The notes below the pieces were generated by a model. That model searched no databases and was not told the origin of the DNA. It worked only from the letters and a program-made list of their open reading frames with translations. Below are positions 11,134 through 46,390 of a stretch of DNA of 64,000 nt, piece by piece (position 1 is the first letter of the stretch; the number at the start of each line of letters is the position of its first letter). A program made the position numbers and the translations under genes. Where the stretch lies: NCBI GenBank assembly GCA_016868035.1, contig VGID01000001.1, forward strand, positions 64,289-128,288. Reading direction: 5' to 3'. Origin of the DNA: Betaproteobacteria bacterium (lineage in GTDB: Bacteria; Pseudomonadota; Gammaproteobacteria; Burkholderiales; SG8-41).

Positions 11134-11265
11134 GTGGCTCGTGACTCGTGACGGGTAAGCGGTAAGCGGCGAGCCGGAAAATCGCGAACCAGCCCGGAAC
11201 TCCGAACCCGGAACCCTGAACAGCGATCCCGGAACGCGAATTGCGCCCCGGGATTCGCGGTCCGT
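11134..11265. repeat. about 19 degenerate heptamers filling the whole hydrolase-peroxiredoxin spacer
   Basis: GTGGCTC GTGACTC GTGACGG GTAAGCG GTAAGCG GCGAGCC ... GAACTCC GAACCCG GAACCCT GAACAGC GATCCCG GAACGCG ... Also contains the hairpin GAACGCGAAT/ATTCGCGGTC. Confidence 0.75.
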
Positions 11266-11727
11266 TCAGAGCTTGCGCAGCTGCTCCAGCATCTCCGCGC
11301 TTTCGGGGATCTTGCCCGGCTCGTAGATCCTCGCGTAGCGGACCACGCCCTTGGCGTCGAGCACGTAGGCCGCGCGCTTGTCCGAGCCGCGCTCCTCGTT
11401 GAAGATGCCGTAGGCCTTGCCGACCGCGCCGTGCGGCCAGTAGTCCGAGAGCAGCGGGAAAGGCACGCCGCCCAGCTTCTCGGCCCACCCCTTGAGGCTG
11501 GCAACCGGGTCGGCGCTGATGTTGAGGATCTCGACGTTCAGCTTCTTGAATTCTTCGTAGTTCGCACGGAACCCGTTGACCTGGTTCGTTCACCCGGGGG
11601 TGAACGCGAACGGCATGAAGGCGACCACGACCGGCCGGCCCTTGAAGCTCGCGAGGGACACCTTCTGGTCGCTGTTGTGCGCGGCGAGCGTGAAATCAGG
11701 CGCGGCTGCGCCGGTCTGGATTTCCAT
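11266..11727 (-). CDS. AhpE/Bcp-type peroxiredoxin with in-frame UGA (probable selenocysteine) at the peroxidatic position
   Basis: Hand translation from ATG 11727 (SD GGGGAG): MEIQTGAAAPDFTLAAHNSDQKVSLASFKGRPVVVAFMPFAFTPG-[TGA 11592-11590]-TNQVNGFRANYEEFKKLNVEILNISADPVASLKGWAEKLGGVPFPLLSDYWPHGAVGKAYGIFNEERGS...LRKL. The length of 462 nt is divisible by 3. The ORF track shows only the 66-aa tail (11266..11466). Confidence 0.72.
11559..11589 (-). other. candidate SECIS region directly 3' of the UGA
   Basis: mRNA after UGA reads ACGAACC AGGUCAACG GGUUCCGU (7-bp stem with one bulge; the loop contains GGUC). An alternative is GGUUC CGUGC GAACU (5-bp stem; loop GU about 26-27 nt from the UGA). 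Folded by eye only. Confidence 0.45.
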
Positions 11728-11782
11728 GCGTTTTCTCCCCTGAATATGCGAAAAAACGGGGCCCGAAACCCCGTCTTTCCGC

Positions 11783-11839: not shown

Positions 11840-12361
11840 TCAATGTAGCTGGATCACGCCGCAGGCGATGCGCGCCCCGGCGTTGCCGGTCGGCTGGGAC
11901 TTGTAGTCGTCGGGGTCGGTGTGGACGATGACGCCGCGGCCGACGATGTTCCCGGGCCCGGGCCGCAGCGTGATCTGGTCGAGCTCGATCCGGATGTTGG
12001 CGAACCCCTTCTTGTCAGCCTTGAGGTTGGGCAGGTCGCCGGCGTGGCGCTCCGCGCTGCCGTAATGCGCGTGCGGCTTGTTGAACGGATTGAAATGGCC
12101 CTTGGTGCTCATGCCGTCGCCCGAGCTGCAGTCGCCGACCTCGTGGATGTGGAAGCCGTGCTCCTGCCCCGGCTTGAGGTTCTGGAGGAACGCGACGACG
12201 AGCACCTTGTCGCCCACCTGCTCGAAAGTCGCCTCACCGAACGTCTTGCTGCCCTTGGTCGGCTGCAGCGCCGCCGACGCCACGAGCGGCGTGTCGGTGG
12301 GCACCGTCTCGCAGGCGGTGAGCAGAATCGTCGCGGCGACAGCGGCAAATGCTGTTTTCAT
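11840..12361 (-). CDS. sodC: periplasmic Cu,Zn superoxide dismutase (lipoprotein)
   Basis: ORF track, 173 aa. Lipobox LLTAC, metal ligands HGFHIHEVGDC, GHFNP, HAGDLPN, ARIACGVI. SD GAGGAGG. Confidence 0.92.
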   Translation of the reverse strand: MKTAFAAVAATILLTACETVPTDTPLVASAALQPTKGSKTFGEATFEQVGDKVLVVAFLQNLKPGQEHGFHIHEVGDCSSGDGMSTKGHFNPFNKPHAHYGSAERHAGDLPNLKADKKGFANIRIELDQITLRPGPGNIVGRGVIVHTDPDDYKSQPTGNAGARIACGVIQLH

Positions 12362-15811: not shown

Positions 15812-16106
15812 TTTTTTCTCCCTCGTTAACCGCCAAATGCGGCGAAGACCCCGATGCTTGCGGGGTCAGATTGCGAAACGGGACGGCGGCCGACGACGAG
15901 CACCCCGGAGCGCGCCAACCGCAGACGAACGCGGCGAGCCGCGGATCAACCCGAACCCAAATCAACAACCGCGCATGATAACCCAACATGGACTGGTGCG
16001 GTTTGCGCCGCGCACGCGAACACAACCCGCCGCACACGTGCATATAATGCGCCGGGCTGCTGGCCGCCCACGGCCAACCCCGAAAAAAAACGACTCGAGG
16101 AGTCCC

Positions 16107-16772
16107 ATGATCACGATCGAATTCCGGAAGACCGCGCCGGTCGCGGCGCTGTTACTGTTGCTCGCTGGGGGCGGTGCCGCGTTGGCGCAGCAATCGAACA
16201 TGACTTTCTTTATCACGAGCGTCGGCGCCGGCAAGGGCGCCGACTTCGGCGGCCTGGAGGGCGCCGACCGGCACTGCCAGAACCTCGCAGCGGCGGCGGG
16301 TGCCGGCAAGCGCACGTGGCGCGCTTATCTGAGCACGAGCGCCGCCGACGGCAAGCCCGCCGTCCACGCGCGCGACCGCATCGGCAAGGGGCCGTGGCAC
16401 AACGCCGAAGGCAGGCTCATCGCGCGCAATATCCAGGAGTTGCACGGCATCAACAACATTAACCACGTCACCGCATTGACCGAGAAGAGGGAACGTGTCA
16501 AGGGCAACGGCGATACCCCCAATATGCACGATATCCTGACCGGCTCGCAGCCGGACGGCACGGCGTTCGCGGGCAGCGACGACCGCACGTGCGGAAACTG
16601 GACGAAGAGCGGCGAAGGCGCTGCGATGGTCGGCCATCACGACCGCAGAGGCCTGCGCGACGACGAGGCAACCCGGTCGTGGAATTCCTCGCATCCCTCG
16701 CGCGGCTGCAGCCTCGACGACCTGAGAATGTCGGGCGGCGCGGGACTGATCTACTGCTTCGCGGCAAAGTGA
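16107..16772 (+). CDS. secreted Cys-containing hypothetical protein (DUF1554-like N-terminal pattern, tentative)
   Basis: In-frame part of ORF 15429..16772. ATG 16107 preceded by GAGGAG. Signal peptide AALLLLLAGGGALAQ, then FFITSVGAGKGADFGGLEGADRHCQ. Confidence 0.6.
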   Translation: MITIEFRKTAPVAALLLLLAGGGAALAQQSNMTFFITSVGAGKGADFGGLEGADRHCQNLAAAAGAGKRTWRAYLSTSAADGKPAVHARDRIGKGPWHNAEGRLIARNIQELHGINNINHVTALTEKRERVKGNGDTPNMHDILTGSQPDGTAFAGSDDRTCGNWTKSGEGAAMVGHHDRRGLRDDEATRSWNSSHPSRGCSLDDLRMSGGAGLIYCFAAK

Positions 16773-16809
16773 CGCGCCCGTCGCGTGCCCTGCGCGCGAC
16801 GGACCGCGG

Positions 16810-17796
16810 TCATTGCACGCGGATCTCCGCCCGCTTCGCAACCTCGCGCCACTTCTGCACGTCGACGCGGATCATCTTGCGGAACTCGGCCGGCGTGATG
16901 GTCTGCACCTCGGCTGCTTCGGCCGCGAGCCGTTTTTGCGTCTCGGACTCCCCAAGTATGGCCGCGAGCTCGCGGCGCAGCTTCTCCTGCACGCCGCGCG
17001 GCGTGCCCGCTGGCGCGACGACGCCCCACCAGACGTAGACTTCGTAGCCGGGAAAGCCGGACTCCGCGACGGTCGGTATGTCGGGCAGCGCCGCGGCGCG
17101 CCTGGCCGCGCCGACCGCGAGCATCTTGATCCTGCCGCTGCGCACGTGCGGCAGCACCTGTGTGACCGAGGTGAACATCACCGGCATTTGTCCCGCCATC
17201 ACGTCCACCATCGCGGGCCCGCCGCCTTTGTACGGCACGTGGACCATGTCGATGCCGGCGAGCTTCTTGAACAGCTCCCCGCCGAAGTGGTTGAAGCCCC
17301 CGACGCCGGTCGAGGCGTAGCTGATGGCCCCCGGCTTCGCCCGCGCGCGCTCGACGAGCTCGCCGAGCGAGGCGAGCCCCAGTCCCGGGAAGACCACGAT
17401 CGAGTTCGGGGACGAACCGATCATCGAGATCGGGTCGAACGACTTCTCCACGTCGTACGGCAGCGTCCGCACCGCGGCGTTCATCACGAACGACGTGGAC
17501 ACCATGAGCACGGTATAGCCGTCGGCGGGCGCGTTGGCGGCGAGCTCGGTGCCGATGATGCCGTTTGCCCCGCCGCGGTTGTCGATCACGAACTGCTGGC
17601 CGAGCCGGTCGCTCAACCTCGCGCCAAGGTAGCGGCCCAGCATGTCGTTGCTGCCCCCCGGCGGAAACGGGATGATCCAGCGCACGGATTTGGTCGGGAA
17701 CTCGGGGTTTCGCGCCCGCTCGGCCGCGTGCGCCGGCAACGCGCCAGCGAGCAAGAACAGTACGGAGAACACGGAAGCGGTGCAGTGCGCCTTCAT
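16810..17796 (-). CDS. Bug/TTT-family periplasmic substrate-binding protein
   Basis: ORF 16810..17886. ATG 17796 preceded by GAGGAGGGG. Signal peptide, then FPTKSVRWIIPFPPGGSND. Confidence 0.9.
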   Translation of the reverse strand: MKAHCTASVFSVLFLLAGALPAHAAERARNPEFPTKSVRWIIPFPPGGSNDMLGRYLGARLSDRLGQQFVIDNRGGANGIIGTELAANAPADGYTVLMVSTSFVMNAAVRTLPYDVEKSFDPISMIGSSPNSIVVFPGLGLASLGELVERARAKPGAISYASTGVGGFNHFGGELFKKLAGIDMVHVPYKGGGPAMVDVMAGQMPVMFTSVTQVLPHVRSGRIKMLAVGAARRAAALPDIPTVAESGFPGYEVYVWWGVVAPAGTPRGVQEKLRRELAAILGESETQKRLAAEAAEVQTITPAEFRKMIRVDVQKWREVAKRAEIRVQ

Positions 17797-18085
17797 GCTC
17801 AGCCCCTCCTCGTTGTCGCCCGCGACCGCGGCGGACGGATTCTGACAAAAAGTATAGTCCGCATTATGGTCGAGCCCAAGCCGCAAAACGAGCGCCCTCG
17901 CGAGCGGATCTGCACCCCTGGAGACTGGAATAAGTCAGGAGAATCAAGGCACAAGTATTGCCTCGTGCGGCAACGAAGCGCGCCACGGGCAAGACGGCCC
18001 GGGGACGTAAAGGGCCGCTCGAGGAGGTACCCGATTGGGGGGCGGCCACGAAGCCACGGCCGCGCGGCGCGACCGCCGCAGTCGC

Positions 18086-19309
18086 TCAGTCCGGCGTACC
18101 GGTGCCCGCCGGCGCCGCCTTCTTGCCGAGCCGCCGCAGGACCTTCACGCGCTGCACGGTGTCGCCCGCGAGGTGCGTCCACACCATCGCGTCGCGCACG
18201 AGCTTGTCCACGCGCGCGTGCATGATGCCGCCCTCGGCGCCGTGGATCTCCATGTTCAGGCGCGTGACGCGCTGTATGACGTCAGTGGAATAGTTCATGA
18301 CCAGGCCGGCGTTCGCGGAGTGCTGCCCGCGATCGTGCAGCCACGCCACGCGCATGACGTAGGAGCGCAGCGCTTCCGTGAGCGCGTGCATCTCGTTCAC
18401 CTTGAGCTGGACCAGCTGGTGCTCCATCAGATACTTGCCCGCGCGCTTGTGCTCCCTCGCGTAGCCGAGCGCCATCTCGCACGCGTCATCGCACACGCCG
18501 AGCGCGTTGGCCGCGAGCTCCAGGTCCCCGAACAGGTCGCCGCCGGTGGTGTCGCCCCGGCCGGCCTTCACAGAGCCGGTGCCCACCTCGCCCACGACGT
18601 TCGCGTGCGGCACCCGCGCGTTCTCGAAGATGAGCTCGGCGTTCTGGTAGAAGCGCCAGCCGCGCTTGTTGAAGATCTTGCCGACGCGGAAGCCCGGCGT
18701 GGTTTTCGGCACCATGAACAGCGTGCCGCCGTGCTTGATGTTGACGTCCGGGTTGGTGCGCGCGTCCACGAAGAACAGCGAGCCCACGCTCCCGTTCGCG
18801 ATGAAGCACTTCTCGCCGTTCAGGATCCACTCGTCGCCCTCGCGCACCGCCCGCAGCCGGTAGCCCGCCTTCGGGTCGTCCTCCGGCGGCATGCGGTTGT
18901 CGGATCCGGCGTTGGGCTCGGTGATCCCGCGGCCCATCACGTAGCGGTGGTCCGCGAGAAAGGGCTTGAGGAAGCGCTCCTTCTGGTCCGGATTGCACGC
19001 GATCGCGATCAGGTGGCTCCACTTCCAGTTCTGGCTGAAGGCCTTGGAAATGGCGCTGTCCCCGCGGGCGAGCTCGGCCATCACCACGGCCTGCGTCACG
19101 AAATCGGCGCCGGGACCGCCCCACTCCTTGGGCACCGCGAGCGTGCGGAAGCCGAGCTTCGAGCCCTTCTCGATGATCCCCCAGTCCCACGGCTCGAAAC
19201 CGCCCTCGATCTGGTCGCGCTCCATCGAGATCGGGCGGATCTCGTCCTCCGCGAACTTGCGCGCCTCGTTCTGCCAGTGGCGCTGCTCTTCGTTCAGCGA
19301 AAAATCCAT
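18086..19309 (-). CDS. acyl-CoA dehydrogenase family protein
   Basis: ORF 18086..19321. ATG 19309 (MDFSLNEEQRHW...) preceded by GGGAG. ACAD N, middle and C-terminal layout, GITEPNAGSD motif. Confidence 0.9.
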   Translation of the reverse strand: MDFSLNEEQRHWQNEARKFAEDEIRPISMERDQIEGGFEPWDWGIIEKGSKLGFRTLAVPKEWGGPGADFVTQAVVMAELARGDSAISKAFSQNWKWSHLIAIACNPDQKERFLKPFLADHRYVMGRGITEPNAGSDNRMPPEDDPKAGYRLRAVREGDEWILNGEKCFIANGSVGSLFFVDARTNPDVNIKHGGTLFMVPKTTPGFRVGKIFNKRGWRFYQNAELIFENARVPHANVVGEVGTGSVKAGRGDTTGGDLFGDLELAANALGVCDDACEMALGYAREHKRAGKYLMEHQLVQLKVNEMHALTEALRSYVMRVAWLHDRGQHSANAGLVMNYSTDVIQRVTRLNMEIHGAEGGIMHARVDKLVRDAMVWTHLAGDTVQRVKVLRRLGKKAAPAGTGTPD

Positions 19310-19431: not shown

Positions 19432-20664
19432 CTACGCGGCGAGCGGGCGCTGGTAGCCGGCGATCGCTTCCGCAATCCCAAGCTTGGTCGCGTCGTCGGC
19501 GTCCTCGGCGTGCAGGAACACCATCGCATCGTGCACGTATTTCTGCAGCGGCATGTCGCGCATGACGCCCATGGCGCCGAAGCACTCGGCCGCAAGCAGG
19601 GCAACCTGGTTGACCGCCTCCGCGGTATAGACGCGCGCCATCGTGTGCAGCGGCAGTGCGGCTTCCTCGCCGCCGGCCGCCGCCTCGGGATGATCCAGCG
19701 CCCACGCTGCCTTCCAGATCATGTTGCGCGCGAGTTCCAGCCGGATCGCGCAGTCGGCGAGCTTGAGCCCGATCGAATGGTGCTCGATGATGCTGTGGCC
19801 GCCTTGCCGGCGCAGCTTCGAATACTCCACCGCAGCCTGGTAAGCCGCACTTCCCACGCCGAGGTTGATCGCCGCCGTGAGTGGCACGCTGCGCACTGCG
19901 TCGGCTCCGCCCGCAAGCGCGCTTTGGCCTTCCCTTCCGAGCAGGTGGTCCTCCGGCACACGGCAGTCCTTGAACACCACCGCGGCGCCGGACCCGTGGT
20001 GCCAGCGGATCGCTTCGCCAACGGCTTTCGACGGCTCCCGGACCGAGAGACCCGCCGCATCGCGCGGCACGAGCAGCGTGCTCACGCCGCCAGCACCGGC
20101 CTTCTTCGGATCCGTCCTCACCTGGACCACGTAGAGCTTCGCGAGCGGCGCGTTCGCGACGAAGCTGACGGCACCGTTGATCACCCAATGGCCGCCCTGC
20201 CTGACCGCGGCCGGTTCGGCCGCGCTGTCGGGACGGTGATAGCGCCATCCGATCCCGGCGCCGGGCTCGCGCCCCGCAAAGGCAAGGTGGCAGTCCTCGT
20301 CTTCGAGGAATTTCGGAAGCCAGCGCGCGCGCTGCGCGTCCGTCATCAACCGGTCGAAGAGAACGTGGGCGAGCACCGCCGTGTGCCCCAGGACCGCCGC
20401 AATGTCCACGTCGCCCGCCGCCAGCTCTTCCATCACGATGCACGAGGTGAGGCAGTCGGCGCCTGCGCCGCCCGCTTCCTCCGAGAGCGCCAGCGTACGC
20501 AATCCCATCCGCGATGCCTTGTCCAGCAGGTCCGCGAGCAGCGGTTTCTCGAACGGCTCCAGACGGCCCGGGTGCCGCGCCGCGGGCTTCACCTCGCTCT
20601 CGACAAAATCCCGCACCGTTTCACGGAACTCGAGTTGCTCAGGGGTCAGCGTGAGGTCGTACAT
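19432..20664 (-). CDS. acyl-CoA dehydrogenase family protein
   Basis: ORF track, 410 aa. MYDLTLTPEQLEFRETVRDF..., ACAD architecture. Confidence 0.88.
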   Translation of the reverse strand: MYDLTLTPEQLEFRETVRDFVESEVKPAARHPGRLEPFEKPLLADLLDKASRMGLRTLALSEEAGGAGADCLTSCIVMEELAAGDVDIAAVLGHTAVLAHVLFDRLMTDAQRARWLPKFLEDEDCHLAFAGREPGAGIGWRYHRPDSAAEPAAVRQGGHWVINGAVSFVANAPLAKLYVVQVRTDPKKAGAGGVSTLLVPRDAAGLSVREPSKAVGEAIRWHHGSGAAVVFKDCRVPEDHLLGREGQSALAGGADAVRSVPLTAAINLGVGSAAYQAAVEYSKLRRQGGHSIIEHHSIGLKLADCAIRLELARNMIWKAAWALDHPEAAAGGEEAALPLHTMARVYTAEAVNQVALLAAECFGAMGVMRDMPLQKYVHDAMVFLHAEDADDATKLGIAEAIAGYQRPLAA

Positions 20665-30808: not shown

Positions 30809-31523
30809 CCGCGAGCTCGCCGCGCAACGCGGCGAGCGCGGTGGCGCGCTTGAGCCCCGCGATCGAGGCGGTCGGAGCGAGGCCCTTGGGGCAGCGCTCG
30901 GTGCAATTCATGTGCGTGTGACACGCGTGGCATCCCGCGTCCCCGGCGACCGCCGCGAGGCGCGCCCGCCCGTCCGCGTCGCGCACGTCATTCAGCAGCG
31001 TCCACGCGCGGTTCAGCGCCGCGGGGCCGAGGTAATCGGGGTTCCATGCGACCACGTCGCACGAGCTGTAGCACACGCCGCACCCGATGCATTCGATCCC
31101 CGCATCCGCGAGCCGGCGCTGCTCCGTATCCGGGGAAACCCGCGCGAAATCGTCCTTGCGCGTGCGCGTGCCCTGGAACCGGCCGCGCGCGCGCGCCCAT
31201 TTGTCGAAGAAGGGCGTCATGTCGGCAACCAGGTCCTTGATGACGGGCAGGTTGGCGAGGGGCGCGAGCTCGAGCAAGCCGCCGGTGGCGACCTTCGCGA
31301 CGTGCGTGCGGCAAGTCCAGCGCGCGCGGCCGTTCACCGTCATCGCGCACGAGCCGCACATTCCGACTCGGCAGGCAAAGCGGTAGGAGAGCGTGGGGTC
31401 GAGGCTGCGCTGAATGTAAGTGACGACGTCGAGCACCGTCTGGCTCTCCAGCCGCGGCACGTCGAATGCCTGGAAACTTCCCTCTTCCCCGCCGCGCCAG
31501 ATCCGAACGTGGAGCGTGCTCAT
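30798..31523 (-). CDS. Sdh/Frd-type iron-sulfur subunit homologue
   Basis: C-terminal 241 codons of ORF 30798..32354, from ATG 31523 (MSTLHVRIWRG...). Cluster motifs CRVGMCGSCAM, CIGCGVCYSSC, CHACHTHMNCTERCP. Confidence 0.88.
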   Translation of the reverse strand: MSTLHVRIWRGGEEGSFQAFDVPRLESQTVLDVVTYIQRSLDPTLSYRFACRVGMCGSCAMTVNGRARWTCRTHVAKVATGGLLELAPLANLPVIKDLVADMTPFFDKWARARGRFQGTRTRKDDFARVSPDTEQRRLADAGIECIGCGVCYSSCDVVAWNPDYLGPAALNRAWTLLNDVRDADGRARLAAVAGDAGCHACHTHMNCTERCPKGLAPTASIAGLKRATALAALRGELAVTE

Positions 31524-44239: not shown

Positions 44240-45466
44240 ATGGCGACAGCGGCAGCGGCAGCGAGAAAGCCGGACGTCAAGGAATTCAATTTCACCTGGA
44301 CCGGCCAGGACAAGACCGGAAAGACCGTGCGCGGGGAGATGCGCGCCACCGGGGAAGCGCAGGTCAACGCGACGCTGCGCCGCCAGGGCATCAAGGTCGC
44401 CGGCGTCAAGAAACAGCGGCTGCGCGGAGGCAAAATCACGGAGAAGGACATCTCGCTGTTCACGCGCCAGCTCGCGACCATGATGAAGTCGGGCGTGCCG
44501 CTGCTGCAGGCCTTCGACATCGTGGGCAAGGGCCACAGCAACGCGGCCGTCGCCAAGCTCCTGCTCGACATCAAGACCGAGGTGGAAACGGGCTCGAGCC
44601 TCAAGCAGGCGTTCGAGAAGCACCCGCTCTACTTCGATGCGCTGTTCTGCAACCTGGTCGGCGCAGGCGAGGCGGCCGGTATCCTGGACTCGCTCCTCGA
44701 CCGGCTGGCCACCTACAAGGAGAAGATCCTCGCGATCAAGAGCAAGATCAAATCGGCGCTGTTCTACCCGATTTCGATCGTCGTCGTGGCGTTCGTGATC
44801 ACCGCGATCATCATGATCTTCGTGATTCCCTCGTTCAAGCAGGTGTTCGCGAGCTTTGGCGCCGACCTGCCCGGCCCGACGCTGATGGTGATGGCGATGT
44901 CGGACTTCTTCGTCGAGTACTGGTACGCGATCTTCGGCGGCATCGCGGCCGGTTTTTACGCCTTCTTCTGGACCTGGAAGCGCTCGCTGAAGATGCAGAT
45001 CATCATGGACCGGGTGTTGCTGCGGGTGCCGATCTTCGGCGATCTGGTGCGCAAGTCGGCGATCGCGCGCTGGTCGCGCACGCTCTCCACGATGTTCGCC
45101 GCCGGCGTGCCGCTGGTGGAAGCCCTCGACTCCGTAGCGGGCGCCGCCGGCAACTACGAGTACTACGCCGCGACCAAGAAGATCCAGGCCGAAGTGCAGA
45201 CCGGATCGAGCCTGACCTCCTCGATGCAGGGCACCGAAATGTTCCCGCCCATGGTGCTGCAGATGGTGGCGATCGGCGAGGAGGCCGGCTCGCTCGATGC
45301 CATGCTCTCCAAGGTCGCCGACTTCTTCGAGCAGGAAGTGGACGACGCGGTGGAGGCGCTCTCGAGCCTGATGGAGCCGATGATCATGGTCGTGCTGGGC
45401 ACGCTGATCGGCGGGCTCGTCATCGCGATGTATCTGCCCATCTTCAAGATGGGCCAGGCCGTCTGA
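44240..45466 (+). CDS. pilC: type IV pilus assembly platform protein PilC (T2SS-F family)
   Basis: ORF track, 408 aa. Duplicated T2SSF domains (FTRQLATMMKSGVPLLQA and WSRTLSTMFAAGVPLVEA). SD GGGAG. Confidence 0.9.
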   Translation: MATAAAAARKPDVKEFNFTWTGQDKTGKTVRGEMRATGEAQVNATLRRQGIKVAGVKKQRLRGGKITEKDISLFTRQLATMMKSGVPLLQAFDIVGKGHSNAAVAKLLLDIKTEVETGSSLKQAFEKHPLYFDALFCNLVGAGEAAGILDSLLDRLATYKEKILAIKSKIKSALFYPISIVVVAFVITAIIMIFVIPSFKQVFASFGADLPGPTLMVMAMSDFFVEYWYAIFGGIAAGFYAFFWTWKRSLKMQIIMDRVLLRVPIFGDLVRKSAIARWSRTLSTMFAAGVPLVEALDSVAGAAGNYEYYAATKKIQAEVQTGSSLTSSMQGTEMFPPMVLQMVAIGEEAGSLDAMLSKVADFFEQEVDDAVEALSSLMEPMIMVVLGTLIGGLVIAMYLPIFKMGQAV

Positions 45467-45529
45467 AGAAGTTTCGCGTTCCGGGTTTCGGGTTTCGAGT
45501 TCATCGACGGCTCGGAACCTGAGACCCGC
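45467..45529. repeat. heptamer run, CGGGTTT type, filling the pilC-pilD spacer
   Basis: GAAGTTT CGCGTTC CGGGTTT CGGGTTT CGAGTTC ATCGACG GCTCGGA ACCTGAG ACCCGC-ATG. Confidence 0.7.
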
Positions 45530-46390
45530 ATGTCCGTCCTGCAGGTATTCCAGACGACGCCCTGGCTGTTCGTCGCCGCTGCCGTCCTCATCGGCCTGGC
45601 GATCGGCAGCTTCCTGAACGTCGTCATCCACCGGCTGCCCGGGATGCTCGAGCGGCGGTGGCGCGCCGAGTGCGCGGAGCTCAACGGAAACGAGGCTCCG
45701 CAGGCGGAGACCTACAACCTGTTCACCCCGCGCTCGCGCTGCCCCCGCTGCGGCCACCGCATCACCGCGCTCGAGAACGTACCGGTCGTGAGCTATCTCG
45801 CGCTCGGCGGAAAATGTTCGGCGTGCAAGGCGCCGATTTCGGCACGCTACCCCGTTGTCGAGCTGCTCTCCGCGGCGCTCGCAGGCTACATCGCCTGGCG
45901 CTACGGCCCGGGCCTCGCCATGCTCGGGGCGCTGATCTTCGCGTGGGCGATGATCGCGCTCGCCTTCATCGATCTCGACACGTTCTACCTGCCGGACAAC
46001 ATCACGCTCCCGCTGCTGTGGGCCGGGCTGCTGTTCAACCTCGGAGGCGTCTTCACCGACATCGGCTCGGCGGTGATCGGCGCCGCCGCGGGCTATTTCA
46101 TCCTGTGGACGGTGTTCTGGGCCTACAAGCTCGCGACCGGCAAGGATGGCATGGGCTACGGCGACTTCAAGCTGCTTGCGGCGATCGGCGCCTGGCTCGG
46201 CTGGACGATGCTGCCGCTGGTGATCCTGCTCTCCTCCTTCGTCGGCGCGATCATCGGCGTCGCGCTCATCGTGTTCGCGCGCCACGGGCGCAACGTTCCG
46301 ATCCCGTTCGGCCCCTATCTCGCGATGGGCGGGCTCGTCGCGCTGTTCTACGGCGAGCAGCTCACCACGCGCTACCTGCAGCTGCTCTGA
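45530..46390 (+). CDS. pilD: prepilin peptidase / N-methyltransferase PilD (A24 family)
   Basis: ORF track, 286 aa. Cys cluster CPRCGH...CSACK. Catalytic Asp contexts FIDLDT and GYGDFKL. Confidence 0.92.
   Translation: MSVLQVFQTTPWLFVAAAVLIGLAIGSFLNVVIHRLPGMLERRWRAECAELNGNEAPQAETYNLFTPRSRCPRCGHRITALENVPVVSYLALGGKCSACKAPISARYPVVELLSAALAGYIAWRYGPGLAMLGALIFAWAMIALAFIDLDTFYLPDNITLPLLWAGLLFNLGGVFTDIGSAVIGAAAGYFILWTVFWAYKLATGKDGMGYGDFKLLAAIGAWLGWTMLPLVILLSSFVGAIIGVALIVFARHGRNVPIPFGPYLAMGGLVALFYGEQLTTRYLQLL

Follow-up and report, generated by a model that had tools for sequence, protein, structure and literature searches.

Here, we report a peroxiredoxin gene (prx) with an in-frame UGA at its catalytic position, located on the minus strand of a 64,000-nucleotide stretch of DNA from an uncultured Betaproteobacteria bacterium of soil or freshwater (assembly GCA_016868035.1, contig VGID01000001.1, positions 64,289 to 128,288; hereafter, the window, whose own numbering is used throughout). 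Comparison with its homologues indicates that prx is very probably a genuine selenocysteine (Sec)-decoded gene, in which UGA 11592-11590 would specify Sec at residue 46 (U46). It appears to be a new, widespread, and systematically misannotated AhpE-like, cysteine-free member of the established family of Sec-containing peroxiredoxins, a placement that we consider well supported but ordinary.

Gene and protein family

The prx frame ran from ATG 11727-11725 to a terminal TGA at 11268-11266 and comprised 154 codons with the stop (152 sense codons, the internal UGA46, and the terminal TGA), for a product of 153 residues. Its sole internal stop was the TGA at codon 46, in the context MPFAFTPG-U-TNQVNGF, and the start methionine was the same in aligned orthologues. 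The sequence thus confirmed the single 154-codon minus-strand frame with one TGA that had been described in an initial annotation made from the window alone. As that annotation had also stated, the open reading frame (ORF) list of the window held only partial pieces of the gene, namely, a 45-amino-acid (aa) head (11590..11727) and a 66-aa tail (11266..11466). The fragmentation that it expected of automated annotation was found in public metagenome contigs with the same locus (176 kb, ENA; 19.6 kb, JGI), where prx was called as AhpC-TSA fragments of 45 aa and 66 aa.

With cysteine put in place of the UGA-encoded residue, the product matched the Pfam AhpC/TSA family (PF00578; 124.2 bits; E=3.9e-36; gathering score, 26) over model positions 2 to 123 of 124 and the Redoxin family (PF08534) with 82 bits. 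The nearest solved structure was AhpE of Mycobacterium tuberculosis (Rv2238c; 1XXU, 1XVW, and 4X0X; E=1e-31; 113 bits), with the next solved peroxiredoxin at no more than 68 bits, so that the product was nearer to AhpE than to the Prx1/AhpC, Prx6, PrxQ/BCP, or Tpx subfamilies. The U46 column aligned onto the cysteine of AhpE AFTGICQGE, its peroxidatic cysteine, and onto cysteine in 48 homologous loci. Both the AhpE-like assignment and the position of the TGA, as first proposed, were therefore upheld, and the alignment with Cys-containing orthologues placed U on the peroxidatic Cys column. The active-site motif (P-x-x-x-T/S-x-x-C(U)) was present as P39-F-A-F-T43-P-G-U46, and R118, which stands opposite the arginine of AhpE ...IANRGTFVVD, was invariant in both homologue alignments. 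PxxxTxxU is the signature of Sec-peroxiredoxins (PMC13188914).

There were no Cys codons in the window gene, and a cysteine at residue 64 was found in some orthologues only, leaving a single catalytic residue and no conserved resolving cysteine. Being without any cysteine, the window protein is most likely an AhpE-type enzyme that works through one catalytic residue, in which Sec stands for Cys ("1-Sec").

Catalytic codon and selection

A homologue scan (one genome per species) yielded 80 loci, or 81 with the window, from several phyla. The catalytic codon of these 81 loci was TGA in 33, TGC in 44, and TGT in 4, with no TAA or TAG. A metagenome scan added 80 further close relatives. Among betaproteobacterial-type copies, TGA occupied the catalytic codon in 98 of 98, and TAA or TAG never did. 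Because the interruption was TGA in every one of these copies, and only TGA or Cys codons occurred across the 81 loci, it lies far beyond chance. Alternation between Cys and TGA is the classic signature of selenoproteins (PMC1088965).

TGA forms were found in 11 uncultured Burkholderiales/Betaproteobacteria genomes, at 60 to 82% identity to the window protein, and also in Chloroflexota, Dehalococcoidia, Acidobacteriota, Dormibacterota, Eisenbacteria, Binatia, and one deltaproteobacterial metagenome-assembled genome. Cys forms were hosted by Actinomycetota (classical AhpE), Syntrophaceae, one Anaerolineae, and some archaea. Assemblies made independently of one another (ENA, JGI, Logan, and NCBI) showed the same TGA.

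Selection was analyzed on 89 distinct full-length sequences, none of which had any other internal stop. The terminal stop of the orthologues always lay 107 codons past the internal TGA and was itself free to be TGA (67), TAG (14), or TAA (7). The ratio of nonsynonymous to synonymous substitution (dN/dS) was 0.21 5' of the UGA, 0.14 over codons +1 to +16, and 0.127 over the 89 codons from +17 to +105, values that point to strong purifying selection on the region 3' of the UGA. Across the window, TGA served as the ordinary stop of 16 of 33 likely genes, more than any other stop codon, from which we take the genetic code to be standard. Conservation of the TGA, purifying selection, a free terminal stop, and a standard code together effectively rule out, on this comparative evidence, that prx is a pseudogene or a split gene, that the TGA is an assembly error, or that the code is reassigned; they form the classical comparative pattern of a selenoprotein.

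A public protein search returned 409 relatives, mostly fragments of 86 to 104 aa confined to the part 3' of the UGA. The apparently full-length relatives mostly had tryptophan at the U position (P0001, P0003-P0006, and P0008). In P0001, P0004, and P0008, the terminal TGA was also translated as tryptophan, which suggests that these homologues were called on short metagenome contigs under a TGA=Trp code. The U column of P0002 had leucine.

RNA element 3' of the UGA

Synonymous change was suppressed in the 16 codons that follow the UGA (Table 1). Among betaproteobacterial copies, synonymous identity reached 0.96 over codons +4 to +11 and 0.93 over codons +8 to +15, against a background of 0.45 to 0.6, and the synonymous rate (dS) was 0.245 in these 16 codons versus 0.75 to 1.0 in the rest of the gene, a 3- to 4-fold drop. 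Within this zone lies the invariant 15-nucleotide (nt) core GGGUUCCGUG(C/A)GAAC, which includes codons that are rare in the genome, where CGU makes up 5% of the Arg codons and GGG makes up 22% of the Gly codons. The raised synonymous identity, the lowered dS, and an invariant core with rare codons together suggest strong RNA-level conservation overlying the coding sequence, at the place expected for a bacterial selenocysteine insertion sequence (SECIS). We infer that this constraint reflects a SECIS bound by SelB. Neither the window nor about 2 Mb of flanking DNA contained a further copy of the core, and no extra selenoprotein gene came to light in this way. A copy with two mismatches, GGGTTCCATGCGACC, was seen at window 31039-31053 (+); the count of such copies was at chance level, with at least two matches in 14 of 100 shuffles.

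In the bacterial SECIS (bSECIS) model, a loop of 3 to 9 nt whose first two positions include G tops an upper stem of 4 to 16 bp, at a spacing of 16 to 37 nt and a minimum free energy (MFE) of at most -7.5 kcal/mol (PMC13188914). Three mutually exclusive candidate hairpins (A, B, and D) could be drawn, all of which use the same GGUUC strand. Hairpin A, with AGGUC in its loop, was rejected as a functional SECIS and is probably not the functional element: its spacing was 7 nt versus the 16 to 37 nt of the model, and its closing pair was lost in 14 of 45 sequences. The third base of the Thr codon is free to vary. This is the hairpin next to the UGA with a GGUC loop to which the initial annotation had drawn attention; it stands too close for the bacterial model, and better candidates lie 21 to 25 nt downstream.

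Hairpin B has 7 bp, one bulged A, and a 5-nt loop that starts 21 nt past the UGA, with the canonical G-U at loop positions 2 and 3 (+25/+26 from the U of the UGA). Its core pairs were paired in 314 of 315 cells, and its energy was -4.2 kcal/mol. Stem-loop D, whose loop starts 25 nt past the UGA, had -5.5 kcal/mol alone and showed 12 uncompensated unpaired cells in its lower helix among orthologues. E. coli SelB needs no more than a minihelix of 17 nt. This background, together with a loop G-U just one codon beyond its position in the fdnG gene of Caballeronia, led us to prefer hairpin B as the adopted fold, at roughly even odds against stem-loop D. The support for the element comes from conservation and not from folding energy.

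Sister clades in other phyla

The TGA forms of Chloroflexota and Acidobacteriota had a G-initial 5-nt loop about 27 nt past the UGA (-16 to -32 kcal/mol), with compensatory changes in three of four apical pairs. For this two-helix SECIS, 86.7% of cells were paired versus 78.9% in shuffles and at most 53% in slid controls, 11 cells were doubly changed versus a shuffled mean of 3.4, and the covariation score was 0.314 versus 0.179 in shuffles; 0 of 500 shuffles reached the observed pairing, double changes, or covariation score. The sister-clade TGA forms thus carry a canonical SECIS with significant covariation. The AhpE-like peroxiredoxin type is accordingly a genuine Sec/Cys family, which strengthens the case for its betaproteobacterial branch.

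In 15 loci of the LAWTP(V/I)-U/C clade, mainly from Chloroflexota/Anaerolineae with one from Acidobacteriota, the peroxiredoxin was fused to a C-terminal glutaredoxin domain (PF00462; L013-L017, L019-L021, L027, L031-L033, L043, L053, and L063). The glutaredoxin domain (about 60 to 80 codons after the peroxiredoxin domain; e.g., L015 10523-10753) had a CPxC or CSxC motif and was nearest to the YruB, mycoredoxin, and NrdH types. The fused peroxiredoxins were mostly TGA forms (L027 is a Cys form), and no NCBIfam model was reached at cutoff by the Sec-peroxiredoxin-glutaredoxin fusion. The occurrence of this fusion in 15 loci points to a glutaredoxin-like reductant for the AhpE-like type. No glutaredoxin-like gene was found near prx in the betaproteobacterial loci searched.

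Proposed mechanism

We propose that a short RNA element in the roughly 50 nt after the UGA, centered on the GGGUUCCGUG(C/A)GAAC core, recruits SelB-GTP with Sec-tRNA(Sec) when the ribosome arrives at UGA46, so that the codon would be read as Sec and not as a stop. SelB would bind the most likely fold, the CGGGUUC-[CGUGC]-GAACU(A)CG hairpin, with the loop G-U about 25 nt past the UGA. The product would be a cytoplasmic, 153-residue AhpE-like enzyme with U46 as its peroxidatic residue. The U46 selenolate, activated by Thr43 and Arg118, would attack a hydroperoxide and become a selenenic acid. Because the product has no resolving cysteine, recycling should call for an external thiol that is encoded elsewhere; the reductant would probably be a protein resembling glutaredoxin or else a thiol of low molecular weight. 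The host itself would be expected to encode selABCD.

It is possible, if doubtful, that the betaproteobacterial copies represent a distinct minimal SECIS class (an invariant hairpin of about 20 nt with a CGUGM loop, below the usual energy threshold) that is read by a SelB otherwise serving fdhA only. In that case, Betaproteobacteria would have in the 1-Sec peroxiredoxin their first selenoprotein family other than FdhA. It would be widespread among aerobic Burkholderiales of soil and freshwater, and the gene callers used for the public contigs would have missed it because no curated model covers this peroxiredoxin.

Contrary evidence and alternative explanations

Several observations weigh against Sec decoding. 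The three folds fit about equally well, and there was no compensatory change among betaproteobacterial copies by which to choose; covariation is uninformative in this clade because the element is invariant. The hairpins were weak alone (-4 to -5.5 kcal/mol) and no better than shuffled sequence (z=+1.3; z=-0.3). Hairpins after the UGA with GGUC or GU in the loop can thus be drawn, as first claimed, but none folds better than shuffled sequence. The MFE structure of the window element, which contains stem-loop D (loop CGAAC; spacing, 25; -9.4 kcal/mol), agreed with all four published bSECIS values, but so did 29 of 48 Cys-codon controls, and the MFE was above the -7.5 kcal/mol cutoff in 4 of 11 betaproteobacterial genome loci; the energy-threshold test was therefore dropped as unspecific. 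No relevant Rfam family matched at gathering or permissive thresholds. The element (7 to 10 bp; loop CGUGC or CGAAC) had no sequence similarity to the strong fdnG SECIS of a cultured Burkholderiaceae. Finally, the 64-kb window, 170 related loci, and about 2 Mb of flanks, a small fraction of the genomes, yielded no selA, selB, selD, or tRNA-Sec; this absence reflects sampling and not absence from the genome.

For this search, the window and all loci were probed by tblastn with E. coli SelA, SelB, and SelD and with Caballeronia SelA and FdnG. As a control of the BLAST database, a peroxiredoxin query gave 86 matches, and the SelA probe was validated by its recovery of Caballeronia selA beside fdnG-fdxH (54% identity; E=2e-119). 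The only match to the SelB probe (L128) was release factor 3 and not SelB. ARAGORN found no tRNA-Sec in the window and 30 loci; its 98-nt "tRNA-His (gtg)" at window 18508-18605 (-) is almost certainly false, being coding-like sequence with no Rfam tRNA, and the interval falls within an acyl-CoA dehydrogenase gene call on a matching contig. A scan of the window for a second TGA-interrupted gene found none. In favor of a Sec-decoding host, the trait is common in Betaproteobacteria, with a selA-selB-selC cluster beside fdhA; FdhA was the only selenoprotein family reported there in 2006 (PMC1794560).

The missing machinery in the sampled DNA, and an RNA element that is short, weak, unlike the Caballeronia fdnG SECIS, and unmatched in Rfam, would also suit a UGA that is read through without Sec, whether by a near-cognate tRNA (Trp, Cys, or Arg) or as a leaky stop, with the conserved RNA as a read-through stimulator. 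We consider this improbable: the codon falls exactly on the catalytic cysteine, where peroxidase chemistry needs Cys or Sec, Cys and TGA alternate across phyla, and the sister clades carry covarying canonical SECIS elements. Among bacteria that use the standard code, no comparable site-specific recoding of UGA at a catalytic cysteine by anything but Sec is known. A sequencing or assembly error that turned TGC or TGT into TGA, which is a general possibility in metagenome assemblies and nothing more, has a negligible chance here and is already refuted by the same TGA in about 100 independent contigs.

Gene callers do give two fragments, and TGA is a normal stop in this genome, as would be expected of a pseudogene or of a truncated gene that yields just a 45-aa N-terminal peptide or no functional product. 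Such a gene would not be expected to retain TGA in 98 of 98 copies with no TAA or TAG, a dN/dS of 0.13 over 89 downstream codons, 89 distinct sequences free of any additional stop or frameshift, and a fixed distance of 107 codons to the terminal stop; this very unlikely explanation appears effectively refuted. Hundreds of database "proteins" of 86 to 104 aa with a start 3' of the UGA could instead suggest a split peroxiredoxin, made as a 45-aa head and a reinitiated C-terminal piece with no catalytic residue. The first in-frame start past the UGA, GTG 11466, lies 42 codons on, whereas codons +1 to +16 still have a dN/dS of 0.14; the called starts vary by orthologue (91, 104, 86, and 66 aa), as gene-caller artifacts would, and a split product would be without a peroxidatic residue. 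We give a split product scarcely any probability and retain Sec decoding of UGA46 as by far the likeliest explanation.

Genomic context

Coordinates of the features of prx and its immediate surroundings are listed in Table 1.

Table 1. Features of the prx locus, in window coordinates
Feature	Position	Strand	Evidence
Stable hairpin right after prx stop, without U-run	11218..11263	-	-39.5 kcal/mol, z=-3.5
Terminal stop codon of prx, TGA	11266..11268	-	Sequence; stop position fixed among orthologues
Complete AhpE-like peroxiredoxin gene (prx), no Cys codon	11266..11727	-	PF00578 E=3.9e-36; AhpE E=1e-31
16 codons of suppressed synonymous change; zone of SECIS candidates	11542..11589	-	Synonymous identity; dS
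Stem-loop D, alternative SECIS candidate: GGGUUC-CGUG-[CGAAC]-UACG-AA-GAAUUC	11548..11574	-	Core of MFE fold
Hairpin B, preferred SECIS candidate: CGGGUUC-[CGUGC]-GAACU(A)CG	11556..11575	-	RNAalifold consensus, 45 unique sequences
Invariant 15-nt core GGGUUCCGUG(C/A)GAAC	11560..11574	-	Once per locus, 101 betaproteobacterial-type loci
Hairpin A, proximal: GAACC-[AGGUCAACG]-GGUUC	11569..11587	-	Loop starts 7 nt past UGA
In-frame UGA, proposed Sec codon, residue 46, PxxxTxxU	11590..11592	-	Conservation; AhpE Cys alignment
Shine-Dalgarno-like GGGGAG, 7 nt 5' of ATG 11727-11725	11735..11740	-	Read in sequence
GC-rich hairpin with U-run, intrinsic-terminator-like, between sodC and prx	11748..11782	-	-27.6 kcal/mol, z=-2.4

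The terminator-like hairpin at 11748..11782 ends about 20 nt 5' of the prx start and delimits the prx unit on its 5' side; a consensus scan made no terminator call for it. The hairpin at 11218..11263 could be a terminator that lacks a U-run or a repeat element. The gene directly 5' of prx encodes a Cu,Zn superoxide dismutase (11840-12361, minus strand) with a lipoprotein-like signal (…LLTAC). Its adjacency to prx was not kept in the orthologous locus L085, where the orthologue lies on a 4-Mb contig. Several genes for TctC/Bug-family periplasmic binding proteins (PF03401) were present at window positions ~1840-22361 (three complete and one partial in 20 kb, by the gene calls of L081) and were also seen in L085, in keeping with a Burkholderiales origin of the window.

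At window 44240-46390 (+), a pilC/gspF-like gene with its stop TGA at 45464-45466 is followed by a prepilin-peptidase-like ORF and by a last ORF whose downstream part resembles dephospho-CoA kinase (GITGGIGSGKS). The TGA at 45464-45466, which was the one other coding-like candidate in the scan for interrupted genes, was rejected as a second recoded codon: it is the ordinary stop of the pilC-like gene, and the in-frame continuation past it is coincidental.

On the Syntrophaceae contig L077, which carries a Cys-form peroxiredoxin, an FdnG-like formate dehydrogenase gene was located at 15875-18979 (+) (43% identity to Caballeronia FdnG). If this gene has an in-frame TGA, a Sec-decoding organism keeps a Cys-form peroxiredoxin. 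On plasmid pSBC2-3 of Caballeronia sp. SBC2 (L171, 19330-21427), a selA homologue lies 3' of the Sec-type fdnG-fdxH genes and matches E. coli SelA over residues 2-373 only. Next to it, at 20567, comes an IS5 transposase gene, and a search of the 30-kb stretch detected no selB and no tRNA-Sec. This replicon may have a disrupted Sec operon.

Significance and comparison with known systems

For annotation, the consequence is that hundreds of entries stand as artifacts of 45, 66, or 86 to 104 aa or as code-4 "Trp" proteins, and no NCBIfam selenoprotein model covers the clade; a dedicated model would mend many Burkholderiales, Chloroflexota, and Acidobacteriota genomes. If Sec decoding is true, betaproteobacterial selenium use would extend beyond formate dehydrogenase to oxidative-stress defense in largely aerobic soil and freshwater lineages, a point of relevance to the debate on how oxygen and the use of Sec are related (PMC5029168). 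The short invariant element would also be a handy natural minimal SECIS for studies of SelB recognition, and a peroxiredoxin with Sec and without Cys would offer a clean system for the benefit of Sec over Cys, e.g., in resistance to overoxidation.

The Sec-containing peroxiredoxin "Prx" (PF00578/COG1225; TxxU) is a cataloged selenoprotein family (PMC1088965, PMC5029168, PMC9312934, and PMC13188914), in line with the initial remark that such proteins are already known as a class (PMC13188914, PMC1088965, and PMC9312934). Judged by its sequence, the window gene fits the definition of this TxxU family, with which it shares the AhpC/TSA domain, the position of the proposed Sec in PxxxTxxU, and widespread Cys homologues; the family SECIS lies inside the coding region immediately 3' of the UGA, as is proposed here for prx. 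The literature searched, which did not extend to BSepDB contents and supplementary lists, contained no description of an AhpE-type or betaproteobacterial Sec-peroxiredoxin, and later catalogs may already include one.

PrxU of Eubacterium acidaminophilum, given as an experimentally shown Sec-peroxiredoxin where PMC9312934 cites Sohling et al. (2001), likewise has Sec in place of the peroxidatic Cys. Unlike members of the PrxU equivalog (NCBIfam NF040737), the window protein scored 92.2 bits versus a cutoff of 270; the PrxU model spans 233 positions versus 153 residues for the cysteine-free window protein, and the PrxU host is a strict anaerobe of the Firmicutes. TGA forms from the other phyla scored 67 to 78 bits against the same model, and no curated cutoff was reached. 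The resemblance to Prx-SUH (NCBIfam NF045827) consists in being a selenoprotein with an AhpC/TSA-like fold, whereas the window protein scored 25.6 bits versus a cutoff of 298 and has TxxU, not CxxU.

The classical proteobacterial SECIS elements, as in the formate dehydrogenase genes fdhF of E. coli and fdnG of Caballeronia sp. SBC2, are likewise coding-sequence hairpins just 3' of the UGA, with a G-U in a small apical loop. The loop G-U stands at +25/+26 in hairpin B versus +22/+23 in Caballeronia fdnG, one codon farther, and the Caballeronia element has a long, strong stem (-28.9 kcal/mol for a 66-nt region) with the loop GGUCU. A likeness of the prx element to the Burkholderiaceae fdnG SECIS was consequently set aside, only the position of the loop G-U being similar.

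Like AhpE of M. tuberculosis, the window protein has the same length, the FPLLSD(F/Y)WPHGAV..AYG(V/I)FNE block, the conserved Thr and Arg, and a 1-Cys-type architecture; unlike AhpE, which has Cys, it has the proposed Sec. The physiological reductant of AhpE is mycoredoxin-1/mycothiol, which is not known from Proteobacteria. Set beside these systems, prx makes modest additions, namely, a betaproteobacterial host range, a cysteine-free architecture, and a minimal RNA element, and it does not overturn the current understanding of Sec-peroxiredoxins.

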